Positions 47,900 to 53,796 of a stretch of DNA of 64,000 nucleotides are shown piece by piece (position 1 is the stretch's first letter; the number at the start of each line of letters is the position of its first letter). Below the pieces are notes generated by a model. The model had not been told where the DNA came from. It ran no database searches and worked only from the letters and a program-made list of their open reading frames with translations. This stretch comes from an uncultured Gammaproteobacteria bacterium (lineage in GTDB: Bacteria; Patescibacteriota; Patescibacteriia; Magasanikbacterales; UBA922). The DNA lies in the NCBI GenBank assembly GCA_964447765.1, contig CAYUTO010000003.1, positions 8,919 to 72,918 on the forward strand, read 5' to 3'. The translations under genes were made by a program, and so were the position numbers.

Positions 47900-48685
47900 A
47901 TGGAAAAATATTTCCACAACATTCTTAAGGAACTCGGTCTTAACGAGCAAGAAGCGCAAGTGTATGGGAGTCTTTTGGAGCTAGGACAATCTGTTGTTTC
48001 CCCTATTGCTGCTTTAGCCAAAGTTAACCGTACAAGCTGTTACAACATTTTAGAATCGCTTGTTCAAAAAAAGATGGTGAGCAAAGCTCGATTTCGAGGT
48101 AAACTAGCTTACAGCGTTGACAACCCCACGCAAATTATCACCAATCTAGAAGAAGAAAAAAAACAACTTGAAGCTACACTGGAGAAGGCAAAAGCTCTTC
48201 AGCCTGAACTTACTCGTAGGTATACACAAAGATACACCAAACCAATTATTAAATATGTTGAGGGTATCGAAGGTATAAAAGAATTATATGAAGACAGTTT
48301 ACGATGTGTCAATAAAATTGAAGGACTGCGTGCCTACTCATCACCCCAGGATGTGCGCGATGAATTAGACGACTATGTAGATTGGTATTTTGATCAACGT
48401 ACTGCTCGAAGTATCCCGATTCGTACTATAGTTCCTGACAAGGAACATGGCAAACAATTAAAGAGGGATGCTCATAAATTTATGCGTACCGTACGGTTAA
48501 TCCCTAAAGAAAAATTTGATTTTTCGCCTGAAATCTATTTGTATGATAATAAATTTACCGTCATGTCTTTCAAAGAAAAATTTGGTTTTCTTATTGAGAG
48601 TAAAGAAATTGTAGATGCCCTGAAAACCGCTTGGGATTTGGCATGGGAGAGGGCCGAAGAATATGATAAAAATATTAAGATTTAA
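47900..48685 (+). CDS. TrmB-family transcriptional regulator
   Basis: 261 aa; N-terminal TrmB-type winged HTH (LGLNEQEAQVYGSLLELGQSVVSPIAALAKVNRTSCYNILESLVQKKMV). Confidence 0.7.
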   Translation: MEKYFHNILKELGLNEQEAQVYGSLLELGQSVVSPIAALAKVNRTSCYNILESLVQKKMVSKARFRGKLAYSVDNPTQIITNLEEEKKQLEATLEKAKALQPELTRRYTQRYTKPIIKYVEGIEGIKELYEDSLRCVNKIEGLRAYSSPQDVRDELDDYVDWYFDQRTARSIPIRTIVPDKEHGKQLKRDAHKFMRTVRLIPKEKFDFSPEIYLYDNKFTVMSFKEKFGFLIESKEIVDALKTAWDLAWERAEEYDKNIKI

Positions 48686-48745: not shown

Positions 48746-50491
48746 CTACTTCCTCTCTCTAATCTCCCTCTTCACCTTCGCGACAAACTCACTCTTCGAA
48801 ATACTTACCTGCTCCTCAACCCCTCGCATACGGACCATGAAATCTCCGCCTTCGAGTTCTTTGTCACCAATGACAAGCATATAGGGCACTTTGCTCTGAA
48901 CAGCTTTTCTGATTTTCTTTCCCACTGTTTCATCAGCCTTATCAATAGAAACGCGGATTCCTTCTGCTCGAAGTTCTAGCGCAAGCGATTCTGTACCCGC
49001 GATGTGCTTCTCAGACACTGGTACGAGCGCTACAGCGACCGGAGAGAGCCATGTAGGCCAAATTCCGGCATAATGCTCAATAAGGAACGCAGTGAACCTC
49101 TCATGGGTCGACAATGGCGCACGATGAATGACAAATACTTCGTTATTTTCTTTTCCTCCTTCATCAATATAATTCAATTGGAAACGTTCCCGTGCGAGGA
49201 AGTCGAGCTGGATAGTCGACATACTTTCTTCTCGACCAATCACAGACTTGAACTGCACGTCCACCTTTGGTCCGTAGAATGCAGCTTCATCTTCGACTTC
49301 GGTAAATTCTACTTTCATGTCTGTGAGTACCTCACGGAGCACAGCTTCGGCCATTTCCCAATTCTCTGGTTGATCAATATATTTTTCAGTATGATCCTTA
49401 CTCCATTTTGAGAGTCTAAACCAATAATTCGTAAGACCAAATACGTTGAAATAATTCATGGTGAGTTCCATCACTCGCTTGAACTCATCTTTGATTTGCT
49501 CTTTGGTACAATAAATATGTGCGTCATTCATCGTGAGTCCGCGTACACGAAGAAGTCCTGCAAGAGTGCCCGAGAGTTCATTGCGATATACGGTGCCATA
49601 TTCTGCGAGACGAAGCGGAAGTTCGCGATAGCTTCGAGGACTTGATCCGTAGATAATATGGTGATGAGGACAATTCATGGCTCGGAGATAGTAGGTACCA
49701 TCGTCCATGACCATTGCTGGGTACATTCCTTCTTTGTAGTAGGGTAGATGACCTGAAGTAAGGTAGAGATCCTCCTTTGCCATATGTGGAGTGACTACTC
49801 TCTGGTAGTCATATTTTTCTTCCATTTCAGTCGCAAATTTTTCGATCTCGTTTCGAATGATTGTACCGTTTGGAAGCCACATAACCAATCCTTTTCCTAC
49901 TCGATCATCAATCAAAAATAATTCCTGGTCTTTGCCGATTTTTCGATGATCTCGCTTCTTTGCTTCTTCTCGCATTTCCAAATATTTTTGCAATTCATCC
50001 TTGGTCGGAAACGCCGTACCATAAATTCTGGTCAACATTTTATTCTTCTCATCCCCTCTCCAGTACGCACCTGCAACACTGAGTAATTTGAAATTGCGAA
50101 GATCTTTTGAAGGAGTCTCGCTATGTCCTCCACGACAGAGATCAGTAAATTTCCCTACCGTGTAGAAGGTAAGTGTCGCACCCTCTCCCGCAAACTCTTC
50201 AATAAGTTCTTTCTTGTATTCGTTACCCGCGAAAAATTCTATTGCCTCGCTCGCACTTACTTCTTTGTGCTCAAATTCTTTCCAATGCTTCACGATTTCA
50301 CCCATTCGCTTCTCAATTTTCTTCAAATCTTCATCATTAATTTTTTCTACTCCAAAATCAAAATCATAATAAAATCCATCCTCAATAGCCGGACCAATGG
50401 TTCGTTTTGCAGTAGGATATAACTCTTCCACTGCTGCCGCAAGCAAGTGCGCAGCGGAATGGCGGAGGTGTTCTAATTCTTGGTTTTGCAT
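48746..50491 (-). CDS. thrS: Threonyl-tRNA synthetase (short form lacking the N-terminal TGS domain)
   Basis: 581 aa; starts in the editing/second additional domain (HSAAHLLA) and is followed by class-II catalytic and anticodon-binding domains. Confidence 0.92.
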   Translation of the reverse strand: MQNQELEHLRHSAAHLLAAAVEELYPTAKRTIGPAIEDGFYYDFDFGVEKINDEDLKKIEKRMGEIVKHWKEFEHKEVSASEAIEFFAGNEYKKELIEEFAGEGATLTFYTVGKFTDLCRGGHSETPSKDLRNFKLLSVAGAYWRGDEKNKMLTRIYGTAFPTKDELQKYLEMREEAKKRDHRKIGKDQELFLIDDRVGKGLVMWLPNGTIIRNEIEKFATEMEEKYDYQRVVTPHMAKEDLYLTSGHLPYYKEGMYPAMVMDDGTYYLRAMNCPHHHIIYGSSPRSYRELPLRLAEYGTVYRNELSGTLAGLLRVRGLTMNDAHIYCTKEQIKDEFKRVMELTMNYFNVFGLTNYWFRLSKWSKDHTEKYIDQPENWEMAEAVLREVLTDMKVEFTEVEDEAAFYGPKVDVQFKSVIGREESMSTIQLDFLARERFQLNYIDEGGKENNEVFVIHRAPLSTHERFTAFLIEHYAGIWPTWLSPVAVALVPVSEKHIAGTESLALELRAEGIRVSIDKADETVGKKIRKAVQSKVPYMLVIGDKELEGGDFMVRMRGVEEQVSISKSEFVAKVKREIRERK

Positions 50492-50494
50492 ATT

Positions 50495-50800
50495 TTTTCA
50501 ACATTATTTAGACGACACACGACACATGGAACACGACTTTATTTTTGAGTCGTAATACGTGAGTCGTTGCTCGTTTTTTAAATAAAAAAACCCGACACCC
50601 TCAAGCAAGTGCCTGAGATGTGCCGGGGTCATGAGCAAGGTTACTTATTTCACGACGGTTCCACCCGTTATTTTACTTTTTCTAAATTTGTATAAAGCTC
50701 CGAGAGTGGTACCATATTCCAAGTTATTCGGGACTGGGCGGGTTCTCGTAATTACGCTTTAGTTACACAAACTATACTGAAAATGATCCCTTCGGTCAAG
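50495..50800 (-). promoter_or_regulatory. Probable T-box riboswitch leader of thrS
   Basis: Minus strand reads AAUAACGGGUGGAACCGUCG (rc of 50653..50667), close to the T-box consensus AGGGUGGNACCGCG; it is followed by a terminator CCCGGCAC..GUGUCGGG + U7 (plus 50584..50628); the ACCC just 5' of the terminator can pair with GGGU for the antiterminator; upstream ACC-A and ACU-A candidate specifier triplets. Confidence 0.45.
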
Positions 50801-50801
50801 C

Positions 50802-52025
50802 CTACTGCACTTCCCGAATAATCACCTCAACATTATTCGCCACATGAGGCACACTTCGATTCCAGAGAGGCTTGAAGGTCATTTCCACCCCTTCTACATG
50901 TTTCAAAGACATCACATATCGCTTTACTTCATCCTCTGATTTTCCAAAAAATTTATCTTTCTGTAATTCGGCACTATTTTCATCAATATTCACGAGCCCT
51001 CTATGTGACACCATCAATTCTGCAGTACTCGTTGCCACATCATAACTTTCCAAAGAAAAACTTGGAGTGGGTTCCACTGATGAAAGAATTTCACTATTAT
51101 CTACCACGCGTTTATTAAGCATATCTACAGCAAATGCAGTAGCTTTCACCGGATCGTACCAGACACCCACCACTGTTGCCGTGCCTTTGAGTACAAATGA
51201 ATCCACTTCTTCACCTAATTCTTTGACTGGCTCAAAGGTATACTGCACCACTTCATATAACCCAGTCATACTGTCAGGTGCTTCAGTTTTGAGCATATCA
51301 GCCCCTTTGATCTTTATTTCTTCAAGTAATACTTTCTCTGCTTTTGCAATATCATCCTGACCAACGATTCCAAATGTTCGGATTCCCCCACTCATTGCAC
51401 TTTCGCTTTTCGCATAAATCACTTTTTGCTTATTTTCCTGAAGTCCAGGGATAGTGAACGTGGTTTCTGCAATATTTCCAGTTGCACCTGGCACGTCTGC
51501 ATACACACTTGCCTTGATTTGCCCCTTTGCAGGCACCGATACACCTTCTTTCAGTCGGAATAGCACTCCTTCTTTTGATAATACACGGGTTGTTGCAATG
51601 AGCCCCTGAGGAATATCAGTCTCATTGATGAGAGTTACCGTACCTTCAGCAGGCGCATCCTCGGTTTTCGTTCCCTCAGGTGAGAACAGTTTTTCGTGTA
51701 CGATCACTGTCGTCGTTACAAATCCAGGAATCAGTGCGTCTGCATCTTTTGCACTGAGCACTACGGTATCGGTCACTTCGAGTGGTTCTGATTTGGTGAT
51801 AATCGTAATACTTGCACGCTTTGAAGACATGAAAATAATCGTGCCGACCAAAATAAGCGTAACAAACAAAAATCCAAGCGCGATAAATTTATAAAATCGT
51901 ATTGGTTGCTCTGAAGGTAGAGGTGTTGCATCAAGTGGCATAATGACAGGACTTATCCAAGTAAAAAGAAAATACAATATTAATAGTTCAACTGATAGTA
52001 TACACAAAAATACACTATTACTCAA
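50802..52025 (-). CDS. Hypothetical N-terminally anchored protein next to pilB (start possibly at the internal Met, 51941)
   Basis: 407 aa; one TM helix then a ~350-aa soluble domain; 8-nt overlap with pilB. Confidence 0.5.
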   Translation of the reverse strand: MSNSVFLCILSVELLILYFLFTWISPVIMPLDATPLPSEQPIRFYKFIALGFLFVTLILVGTIIFMSSKRASITIITKSEPLEVTDTVVLSAKDADALIPGFVTTTVIVHEKLFSPEGTKTEDAPAEGTVTLINETDIPQGLIATTRVLSKEGVLFRLKEGVSVPAKGQIKASVYADVPGATGNIAETTFTIPGLQENKQKVIYAKSESAMSGGIRTFGIVGQDDIAKAEKVLLEEIKIKGADMLKTEAPDSMTGLYEVVQYTFEPVKELGEEVDSFVLKGTATVVGVWYDPVKATAFAVDMLNKRVVDNSEILSSVEPTPSFSLESYDVATSTAELMVSHRGLVNIDENSAELQKDKFFGKSEDEVKRYVMSLKHVEGVEMTFKPLWNRSVPHVANNVEVIIREVQ

Positions 52026-53796
52026 TTACTCTGAATACTTCACTCAATGTTGTCACCCCTTCAATTGCTTTCAAGACCCCATCTTCAACCATCGTACGCA
52101 TACCCTCGGCACGTGCCACACTCTCAATGTCTTGCTCCCCAACTTGTCCGCCCAAAATAAGTTTTTTTATTTCATCACTCACAATAAAAAGCTCGCAGAT
52201 TCCAATTCGTCCCTTATACCCAATACCACTACATTCACTACACCCCTCTTCCGCGGCCACAAAAAACTCTTCTGCTCCCACAGCCACCTGTTCTCGGTCG
52301 TGAGTATTCATTCCATCAATCACTCCTCGTACTCGCTCTTGGATATGTGGATCCAACGCATCAAATCCCACTTTCTTTCTACATTTCTCACATACTCGTC
52401 GTACCAATCGTTGTCCCATCACACAATTGAGTGCTGGAGCTAACAGATAAGGGGCCACCCCCATTGAAAGAAAACGAGAAATTGCACCAGCAGATGAATT
52501 GGTATGCAAGGTTGAAAGCATCAGATGCCCCGTGAGTGCTGCCTGGACTGCAATCTCACTTGTCTCTTCATCCCGAATTTCTCCGACCATCACAATATCA
52601 GGATCTTGACGAAGAATTGAACGAAGCCCAGCTGCAAACGTATAACCTTTACTATGATCAATTTGACTTTGATTCACCCCTTCGAGACGATACTCTACCG
52701 GATCTTCGAGAGTAATAATTTTTACCCCCGGCTGATTCAAAATTTGTAAAACTGCATACAAGGTCGTCGATTTTCCAGACCCCGTAGGACCGGTAGTTAT
52801 AATCATTCCAGTCGGACGCTCAATCTGCATTTTTAATTTTTCGAGTACACCTGCGGTAAACCCAAGCTGTTCGAGTGTAATTCCACCCTCGCCCTGTACC
52901 AGGAGACGCATCACAATACTTTCTCCAAACACGGTCGGGATTGTAGACACACGTACATCAATATCCCCATCAGGACTTTTGATCGTAAAACGTCCATCTT
53001 GAGGCTTTGAAATAATATTAATTTTCAATGCAGAAAGCAATTTGATGCGTGATAATAATTTTTTATATGCTTCTTTCGTAAGTGTTGCTACATCATGAAG
53101 AATTCCATCCAACCGGAATCGCACTACAATACTTTCTTGTTCTGCTTCCACATGTACGTCTGACGCATGCACTTTCAGCGCAGCACCAAGACTGATTGTA
53201 AGCACATCGGTGGTACTTGCGGTTTCCAAAAGTTCAGCAACTGAATCAAAGTCATCAACTGATGCCTGTACTTTTTTCAACGCTTCGACACTAATTTCTA
53301 TATCTTTAGTAATTGGTTTTATGGTTGGAAGTTTCTCATACAATGAAAGCACACGATCGAGACTCACTTCTGAGATTACATACACCGCTCCAGTCACATG
53401 TTTTTGTGTCTCAATTCTCGTAAGAATACTCTCGACTTCTGGATTATTCGGATCAAGAGCTCCCAAACGTATTTCGTCATTCGTTGCAAAAAAACATACC
53501 ACCCCTGTCGCCTCTACTTCTTCTCGACTAATTTGTTTTAATGCTTCATGAGTAATAGGAAATTTGACCAAATCAATATGGGGCACACCAATACTCGCAG
53601 CAAATCGCATTGCTTTCACCTCAAGTTCTTTTTTCTTAATCTCATCCATTTTTTTAATCAGAGCACCCTTACCCCCCTGATTACCAACAGACGGGAGTTG
53701 TACGTCTCCACCTGTATTCATGAGGTCACTGATTGAAGGTCTGTCTGACATATATTTTTTAGGTGCGTTTGAAACTAGTAATCCATGCGTGCACAC
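52018..53796 (-). CDS. pilB: Type IV pilus assembly ATPase PilB (GspE family)
   Basis: 592 aa; Walker A GPTGSGKSTT, and a tetracysteine motif CEKC...CSECSGIGYKGR. Confidence 0.9.
   Translation of the reverse strand: MCTHGLLVSNAPKKYMSDRPSISDLMNTGGDVQLPSVGNQGGKGALIKKMDEIKKKELEVKAMRFAASIGVPHIDLVKFPITHEALKQISREEVEATGVVCFFATNDEIRLGALDPNNPEVESILTRIETQKHVTGAVYVISEVSLDRVLSLYEKLPTIKPITKDIEISVEALKKVQASVDDFDSVAELLETASTTDVLTISLGAALKVHASDVHVEAEQESIVVRFRLDGILHDVATLTKEAYKKLLSRIKLLSALKINIISKPQDGRFTIKSPDGDIDVRVSTIPTVFGESIVMRLLVQGEGGITLEQLGFTAGVLEKLKMQIERPTGMIITTGPTGSGKSTTLYAVLQILNQPGVKIITLEDPVEYRLEGVNQSQIDHSKGYTFAAGLRSILRQDPDIVMVGEIRDEETSEIAVQAALTGHLMLSTLHTNSSAGAISRFLSMGVAPYLLAPALNCVMGQRLVRRVCEKCRKKVGFDALDPHIQERVRGVIDGMNTHDREQVAVGAEEFFVAAEEGCSECSGIGYKGRIGICELFIVSDEIKKLILGGQVGEQDIESVARAEGMRTMVEDGVLKAIEGVTTLSEVFRVIE

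Follow-up and report, generated by a model that had tools for sequence, protein, structure and literature searches.

The leader of thrS, the gene for threonyl-tRNA synthetase (ThrRS), in a 64-kb stretch of contig CAYUTO010000003.1 (the window, along whose full length all positions below are counted) is very probably a transcription attenuator of the T-box type that senses tRNA-Thr and is built to a minimal architecture. T-boxes are a model system for the recognition of a whole tRNA by another RNA. The preliminary description of the window had placed thrS under the control of such an element, and the proposal is upheld by a canonical discriminator in 12/12 leaders of this kind, by covariation in Stem I, and by a match to an independent covariance model, R1. 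The sequence elements, two mutually exclusive folds, the conservation and covariation of both, and the agreement of the displayed codon with the regulated gene can be read directly from the 12 leaders. The parts of the leader and the gene that it precedes are these:

50802 to 50491, minus strand: the thrS leader, 310 nucleotides (nt) between the end of the upstream open reading frame (ORF; 50802) and the thrS ATG (50491)
50794–50799, minus strand: −35 hexamer TTGACC of the leader promoter, sigma-70-like, from a consensus scan
50771–50776, minus strand: −10 hexamer TATAGT, from a consensus scan, with a spacer of 17 nt to TTGACC
50694–50760, minus strand: Stem I, short form, from per-sequence folds and covariation
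50760–50756 with 50698–50694, minus strand: P1, AAAGC/GCUUU, 5–6 base pairs (bp) across leaders
50755–50749 opposite 50700–50699, minus strand: asymmetric basal loop, GUAAUUA opposite GA
50748–50744 with 50705–50701, minus strand: P2, CGAGA/UCUCG
50743–50738, minus strand: 5' strand of the specifier loop, ACCCGC (ACCAGC in relatives), in a 6x6 internal loop
50706–50711, minus strand: 3' strand of the specifier loop, U-ACC-A-C, with the codon ACC (Thr) at 50710–50708 and the conserved purine A at 50707
50712–50737, minus strand: P3 and a short variable distal hairpin; CCA (50737–50735) with UGG (50714–50712), bulged A (50715), hairpin 50734–50716
50668–50693, minus strand: single-stranded A-rich linker with the conserved UACAAAUU and the purine flanks AAG (50678–50676) and AAA (50673–50671)
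50654–50667, minus strand: T-box sequence CGGGUGGAACCGUC, comprising the A1 5' strand CGGG (50667–50664), the bulge UGGAACC (50663–50657) and the start of A2
50624–50656, minus strand: remainder of the antiterminator, with A2 GUCGUG (50656–50651)/CAUGAC (50633–50628) and the A1 3' strand CCCG (50627–50624)
50584–50627, minus strand: intrinsic terminator, hairpin 50627–50591 followed by U7 (50590–50584)
48746–50491, minus strand: thrS, the regulated gene, encoding ThrRS of 581 amino acids (Pfam: tRNA_SAD, tRNA-synt_2b of the class II core, HGTP_anticodon)

The T-box core of the leader, GGGUGGAACCG, lies at 50666–50656 (minus strand) within the context AAUAACGGGUGGAACCGUCG, as had been described. 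It is a single occurrence in 64 kb, where 0.03 would be expected by chance, and no further T-box-like discriminator was found in the window. The whole T-box sequence agrees with the T-box consensus AGGGUGGNACCGCG apart from its first base and the GUC tail, and GGGUGGAACCGUC is unchanged in 12/12 leaders. The bulge always reads UGGA, as it does in a Rfam-validated thrS T-box of Chloroflexi (locus L012); the Rfam consensus is UGGU.

All 12 leaders fold into the same antiterminator, in which a 4-bp A1 (CGGG/CCCG) and an A2 helix beginning GUC...GAC enclose the 7-nt bulge UGGAACC. The terminator ending in U7 is likewise present as reported, its arms CCCGGCAC (50627–50620) and GUGUCGGG (50598–50591) being joined by an inner helix. 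Since the 5' arm of the terminator reuses the 3' strand of A1, terminator and antiterminator cannot coexist. The mutual exclusion postulated earlier is thus retained, but the register postulated with it, ACCC with GGGU, is not, and gives way to the A1 and A2 pairings listed above. In the window the terminator folds at −26.7 kcal/mol and the antiterminator, in a constrained fold, at −12.0 kcal/mol; the terminator is more stable by about 15 kcal/mol, and the default state is OFF. An equivalent terminator stands in 12/12 leaders, divergent in sequence, with CCCCG as its start, a stability of −12 to −31 kcal/mol and a run of U5–U8 behind it.

Covariation supports the antiterminator helices. In a MAFFT alignment of the 12 leaders, 94% of the cells at the ten A1/A2 pairs are paired, vs 27–56% with slid partners, and the covariation score of 0.197 (vs 0.082 ± 0.025 shuffled) is reached by 0/500 shuffles. 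Compensatory changes are plainest at the fourth A2 pair, which is CG in six leaders, UG in two, and AU, GU and UA in one each.

Stem I of the leader is short and consists of P1, P2, the specifier loop and P3. Nine of the 12 leaders fold independently into this structure. In a curated register 164/168 cells are paired (97.6%), vs 149.0 ± 2.3 after shuffling, a value that 0/2000 shuffles reach. Columns of P1 show up to five pair types in this register; the first P2 pair is CG in eight leaders, UG in three and AU in one, and at the second position above the bulge five leaders have UA, three CG and one UG. In a model-guided alignment both bases have changed in four of the five P1 pairs, and P2 pairs in 100% of its cells. 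MAFFT with RNAalifold recovered only P2 and CCA/UGG, since the variable hairpins misalign, and was replaced for Stem I by the per-sequence folds, the curated register and the model-guided alignment. In the helix above the specifier the registers ACC/GGU, GCC/GGU and CCA/UGG are indistinguishable, all bases being invariant; CCA/UGG is preferred because the corresponding UUA/UGG retains the helix in the group of the relative L030.

The specifier loop presents a threonine codon in front of a threonyl-tRNA synthetase gene. UAC[C/U]A is invariant in the 12 leaders, the codon being ACC in 11 of them and ACU in L030, and the A that follows is invariant as well; two close relatives of L030 (L085 and L088) carry ACC. 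The change between ACC and ACU is a synonymous one at the wobble position, the kind to be expected if a GGU anticodon reads the specifier. The order of codon, A, 5-bp helix and GGAGC is the same as in the Rfam-validated Chloroflexi thrS T-box. Two threonine codon candidates had been named in the preliminary description, and both are present: ACC-A (50710–50707, minus strand) is the conserved specifier and matches thrS. The other, ACU-A (50762–50759, minus strand), is ruled out as a specifier, since it lies at the predicted transcription start and is not conserved.

A sigma-70-like promoter, TTGACC-17-TATAGT, spans 50799–50771 (minus strand), between the upstream ORF and the leader, and predicts a transcription start near 50764, about 4 nt before P1. 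A TTGACN-17-TANNNT promoter is equally placed in nine of the 12 related leaders; its −10 element ends 18–22 nt before P2, so that the start would fall at P1. The stretch that begins with P1 and ends with the terminator measures about 175 nt. A thrS orthologue stands behind every related leader, its start about 35–125 nt beyond the terminator in the 12 leaders.

The relatives (loci cited by L number) were gathered in two ways. A genome scan with the ThrRS protein gave 80 species-representative thrS loci, among which the closest belong to metagenome-assembled genomes (MAGs) of Patescibacteria, the candidate phyla radiation (CPR). The GAGAACC ... UGGUAC ... GGGUGGAACCG design is common to the window, to L001, whose ThrRS is 93% identical, and to L030, from a Magasanikbacteria MAG. 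Searching metagenomes for the pattern of three blocks (GAGAACC, UGGUAC, GGGUGGAACCG) yielded 16 loci. Thirteen of them are real, each directly upstream of thrS with a ThrRS 44–62% identical to that of the window, and the other three matched by chance, within GC-rich coding sequence. In total there are 12 distinct leaders of the window type, 11 besides the window, all directly 5' of thrS, with ThrRS identities of 44–93%; as these were gathered with a pattern derived from the window, they show conservation of the type, not its frequency. More broadly, GGGUGGAACC, with N = A throughout, precedes thrS by 70–200 nt in about 25 of the 80 loci, in many CPR lineages, Chloroflexi and Clostridia.

R1 was built from ten leaders, leaving out the window and its near-twin L001, with the variable hairpin tips trimmed. 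It matches the window at 50624–50761 (minus strand) over its full length (138 nt), with 82.7 bits and an E value of about 3e-17; the next best match has 11.4 bits. Among the 80 species-representative loci it scores high in L001 and L030 only, and canonical T-boxes receive 17–32 bits. When the untrimmed sequences are aligned under guidance of the model, 93.4% of cells in the whole structure are paired vs 28–47% with slid partners, both partners have changed in seven pairs, and covariation scores 0.327 vs 0.211 ± 0.015, with 0/500 shuffles reaching any of these measures; an alignment of this kind is fitted to the model and so biased towards the structure, and the unfitted A1/A2 counts and the curated Stem I counts agree with it. 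The composite match of the leader is far beyond chance. An ordinary terminator of the preceding gene beside a fortuitous T-box core, for which the mere ten specified bases of the core and the three chance hits among 16 pattern matches might speak, is accordingly dismissed as next to impossible, since a promoter separates the upstream ORF from the leader and the whole 138-nt arrangement stands before thrS in 11 other distinct contigs, with the R1 E value given above.

By analogy with the established T-box mechanism, we infer that the leader binds tRNA, senses its charge and controls transcription accordingly. Transcription would start at the sigma-70-type promoter, a few bases before P1. The nascent RNA would fold into the short Stem I, exposing ACC and then A on the 3' side of the internal loop, where the codon could pair with the GGU anticodon of tRNA-Thr. 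If the tRNA is uncharged, its 3' end, predicted to be UCCA, would pair with UGGA in the 7-nt bulge; this pairing would stabilise the otherwise weak antiterminator (about −12 kcal/mol) and allow RNA polymerase to read into thrS. With charged tRNA, or with none, the much stronger terminator (about −27 kcal/mol, U7) would capture CCCG and transcription would stop.

Several canonical parts are missing from the leader. The fold sought in the preliminary description, a Stem I with a threonine specifier, an AG box and distal T-loop motifs, exists in part: the specifier loop with ACC-A is there, conserved and covarying in 11 other thrS leaders, but the AG bulge and the distal T-loop platform are absent. 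In the 12 leaders the distal hairpin varies in length from 3 to about 14 bp and its loops are unrelated (AUAAC, GAA, AAAAA, UAA and others), so that it holds neither an AG bulge nor the elbow-binding double T-loop platform (IDTM). A K-turn at the base of Stem I is ruled out: the 3' strand keeps its GA (GGAGC), and the 5' strand, GUUUGUA in most relatives and GUAAUUA in the window, is without UGA/GA. The S-turn consensus AGUA/GAA was not found in the specifier loop. Between Stem I and the T-box there are only about 26 unpaired A/U-rich bases, and hence neither Stem II nor the IIA/B pseudoknot. Nor is there a Stem III hairpin in the 12 leaders, where just two bases lie between conserved purine flanks. 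These flanks, RAG-NN-AAA, are kept in 12/12 leaders (AAAAG-NN-AAA, with UGAG or CGAG in some) and have been assigned to the discriminator, as RRRxG...AA (PMC7583486, Table 1) or 'RAG' (PMC11297988). Without an elbow platform, a K-turn consensus, Stem II/IIA-B or Stem III, tRNA recognition would proceed mainly through the anticodon and NCCA contacts.

A pseudoknot between GUUUGUA and the linker UACAAAU was considered and is unsupported: it is perfect in two leaders, the other changes are non-compensatory, and the GUAAUUA of the window pairs poorly. The elements concerned lie at 50749–50755 and 50684–50692 (minus strand) in the window, and the same elements occur in L087, L093, L001, L083 and L084.

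Several observations weigh against a functional T-box. The distal platform and the support of Stem II or Stem III are described as important in transcriptional T-boxes (PMC7583486, section 6.2; PMC11297988), and their absence leaves fast, tight tRNA binding without an explanation. The Rfam family RF00230 (Rfam 15), put forward earlier as a check, gives no match: none at the gathering score across the whole window, none at E<=10 in the 501 nt and 196 nt around the leader, and none even at E<=1 in the relatives of the window type. Of the two findings that together were to refute the T-box, this one is true and the other, a failure to fold a Stem I with a threonine specifier, is false. One relative with a 65%-identical ThrRS, L002, has no such leader, and no tRNA-Thr gene, with which the UGGA discriminator might be compared, lies in the window or in any of the 98 loci.

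The Rfam result needs calibration. The scans covered the whole window (gathering score) and, at E<=10, positions 50400–50900 and 50580–50775; they gave just the chance matches Arrc14, mir-70 and NsiR1, driven by the terminator. For canonical thrS T-boxes of Chloroflexi and Clostridia the scores are 93.7, 88.3, 84.2, 79.3 and 75.7 bits, the gathering score being 93. Because such elements fall at 76–94 bits, the RF00230 threshold is a poor test, and to hold the leader to it is judged unfair; that the window type obtains no RF00230 score at all nonetheless means that it is truly distant from the curated model, and Rfam 15 holds no family that matches the leader. Full-length canonical thrS T-boxes below the gathering score were seen at L039:2702–2895, L029:2663–2889, L074:2694–2932 and L070:2582–2859, with 76–88 bits and E values of 1e-14 to 7e-18. 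The gathering score thus excludes canonical thrS T-boxes of Clostridia and Chloroflexi, and annotation that relies on it under-calls T-boxes.

The only serious rival is a relic, a T-box that has lost tRNA binding and persists as an attenuator, constitutive or dependent on RNA polymerase speed, that damps thrS. It would account for the missing RF00230 match and for the absence of accessory domains reported to be necessary in transcriptional T-boxes. It is nevertheless unlikely. Even at ThrRS identities as low as 44%, where the helices have drifted with compensation, the UGGAACC bulge, the RAG/AA purines and the specifier with the A next to it stay invariant, and the sole codon change seen is synonymous; exact preservation of the bases that contact the tRNA argues against a relic.

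Two other kinds of control over thrS are far less probable still. In Escherichia coli the synthetase binds a tRNA-like structure in the thrS leader and represses its own gene, and this autoregulation through tRNA mimicry is established (PMC9976931); the window has an additional hairpin at 50512–50574, between terminator and start codon, that might be seen as such an operator. This hairpin is missing in L001 and in other relatives, and the conserved loop presents the codon ACC rather than a threonine anticodon. Control in E. coli is exerted at the ribosome-binding site; the conserved switch of the present leaders is a terminator, which lies well before the start codon. A ThrRS-binding operator is therefore very improbable. 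Attenuation by a leader peptide, in which translation from an invariant AUG (50715–50713) in AUGGUACC would select the hairpin, can be given hardly any credence. An ORF of 15 codons (MVPLSELYTNLEKVK) does run in the window from this AUG to a point just before the T-box, but across the 12 leaders the ORF has 8–25 codons with 0–2 threonine codons, lacks a Shine-Dalgarno sequence and stops at differing places, and the common MVPLSE merely reflects bases conserved for RNA pairing.

Comparison with known systems shows what the leader shares with them and where it departs. With canonical transcriptional T-boxes (RF00230; Bacillus subtilis tyrS and thrS, and the Chloroflexi thrS element) it shares the 4-bp A1, the 7-nt UGGNACC bulge, A2, and a terminator that reuses the 3' strand of A1. 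It also shares the specifier and purine on the 3' side of the Stem I internal loop followed by ...GGAGC, a codon that fits the synthetase gene, the RAG...AA flanks and, with canonical thrS T-boxes, the thrS-specific UGGA. It differs from them in having no IDTM, K-turn UGA/GA, AGUA/GAA S-turn, Stem II, IIA/B pseudoknot or F-box, or Stem III. The glyQS T-boxes, like the window type, are transcriptional, without Stem II and the IIA/B pseudoknot, and have a short linker between Stem I and discriminator (PMC11297988), but they keep a long Stem I with the elbow platform and Stem III, neither of which the window type has. The translational ileS T-boxes of Actinobacteria, with an intermediate or 'ultrashort' Stem I, have the same discriminator core and no elbow platform, as far as the account of Sherwood et al. 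2015 in PMC7583486 goes; they differ in that they sequester the Shine-Dalgarno sequence and compensate by a Stem II S-turn and the IIA/B pseudoknot (PMC7583486, PMC11297988). The leaders described here do not belong to this class II of Actinobacteria, an intrinsic terminator with U5–U8 standing in 12/12 leaders and Stem II being absent.

According to two reviews, transcriptional T-boxes as a rule depend on the platform of a long Stem I for rapid tRNA capture; short Stem I forms are found in translational T-boxes of Actinobacteria and are regarded as tolerable only under translational control, with Stem II/IIA-B compensating (PMC7583486, section 6.2; PMC11297988). Neither review describes a T-box that, like the window type, joins an intrinsic terminator to a short Stem I and lacks both Stem II and Stem III.

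A second type of thrS leader was observed in Patescibacteria (for example L015, L028, L025, L042, L063 and L005). It resembles the window type in its ACC specifier, UGGA bulge, terminator and lack of an elbow platform, and differs in carrying the specifier in a 7-nt terminal loop after GAUUG, with a second hairpin and usually Stem III, where the window type has an internal-loop specifier and no Stem III. This second type is widespread in Patescibacteria, upstream of thrS (L015:2825–2960, L028:2830–2950, L025, L020, L038, L036, L042, L053, L063, L051, L072, L004:1640–1800, L005). GAUUG is followed by a covarying hairpin of 6–7 bp whose 7-nt loop, (C/U)(U/C)ACCA(A/G), e.g. CUACCAA, displays the threonine codon in the manner of an anticodon loop; then come a small second hairpin, CUAAUC, usually a normal Stem III, the UGGA T-box and a terminator. 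It scores 28–40 bits on RF00230, vs the gathering score of 93, and resembles the actinobacterial 'ultrashort Stem I', but with intrinsic terminators.

The host of the window looks like a member of the Patescibacteria/CPR, to judge from its ThrRS neighbours and the one named Magasanikbacteria MAG among them. Among the loci collected are several from MAGs titled 'uncultured Gammaproteobacteria bacterium' (L001, L002, L004, L020, L027, L041, L053) whose ThrRS and thrS leaders group with Patescibacteria; the record taxonomy of these MAGs is probably wrong. The earlier remark that T-box leaders are rarely documented outside Firmicutes, Actinobacteria and Chloroflexi proved apt. A 2008 survey lists T-boxes only for Firmicutes, Actinobacteria, Chloroflexi, Deinococcus-Thermus and two Deltaproteobacteria (PMC2494555), and a 2024 perspective on Patescibacteria mentions riboswitches only as tools to import (PMC11665869). 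A full-text literature search, incomplete in its coverage, found no T-box report for CPR, Patescibacteria or Saccharibacteria. The mechanism is that of the familiar T-box switch; the architecture and the host phylum are new.

It may be asked whether the window type amounts to a fourth class of T-box, native to Patescibacteria, that terminates transcription and consists of a short specifier stem and the discriminator core only, without platform, K-turn, Stem II/IIA-B or Stem III hairpin. We consider this an even call. In such a class two-point recognition of the anticodon and NCCA might suffice for co-transcriptional sensing in slow organisms with small genomes, or the invariant 5' ACCAGCCCAG, the bulged A and the linker UACAAAUU might form a new compensating contact. 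If a T-box that is conserved, covaries and is coupled to a terminator does without these accessory parts, it would define the minimal functional core of the system, and structural studies and engineering would gain a compact natural scaffold of some 140 nt. T-box regulation would also reach into the Patescibacteria, a huge and mostly uncultured radiation about whose gene regulation almost nothing is known and in which inducible expression tools are in demand (PMC11665869). The case shows, too, that the thresholds of curated models miss whole T-box lineages.

From the UGGA bulge the tRNA-Thr of the host is predicted to carry U73, with the 3' end UCCA. Among bacterial tRNA-Thr, 28,854 have U73 vs 131,288 with A73, or about 18% U73, and tRNA-Thr is one of the few bacterial families with a sizeable U73 fraction (PMC6097841). 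Many unrelated phyla, among them CPR, Chloroflexi, Nitrospirae and Ignavibacteria, have a tRNA-Val(GAC) gene directly before thrS or before the T-box of thrS, a conserved gene order that the window does not share; it was seen at L002:2533–2607, L012:2483–2557, L021, L031, L033, L049, L059, L071, L074, L077, L024, L018 and L022.

Upstream of thrS the window encodes an ORF with a weak Baseplate_J match (50802–52025, minus strand) and a PilB-like ATPase of a type IV pilus or type II secretion system (52018–53796, minus strand). Downstream of thrS lies a divergently oriented regulator of the TrmB family (47900–48685, plus strand). A Pfam scan of ten further large ORFs in the window found no aminoacyl-tRNA synthetase among them. 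The gene neighbourhood of thrS recurs on Logan contigs from SRR12712864 and SRR12712865, and none of the contigs with an identical ThrRS extends past the window.

The additional imperfect hairpin at 50512–50574 (minus strand), located after the T-box terminator and before the start codon of thrS, consists of three ACGA(C/G) repeats opposite three GUCGU(G) repeats and folds at −21.4 kcal/mol (z = −2.25). It occurs neither in L001 (93% identical) or other relatives nor elsewhere in the window, and may be a small insertion.

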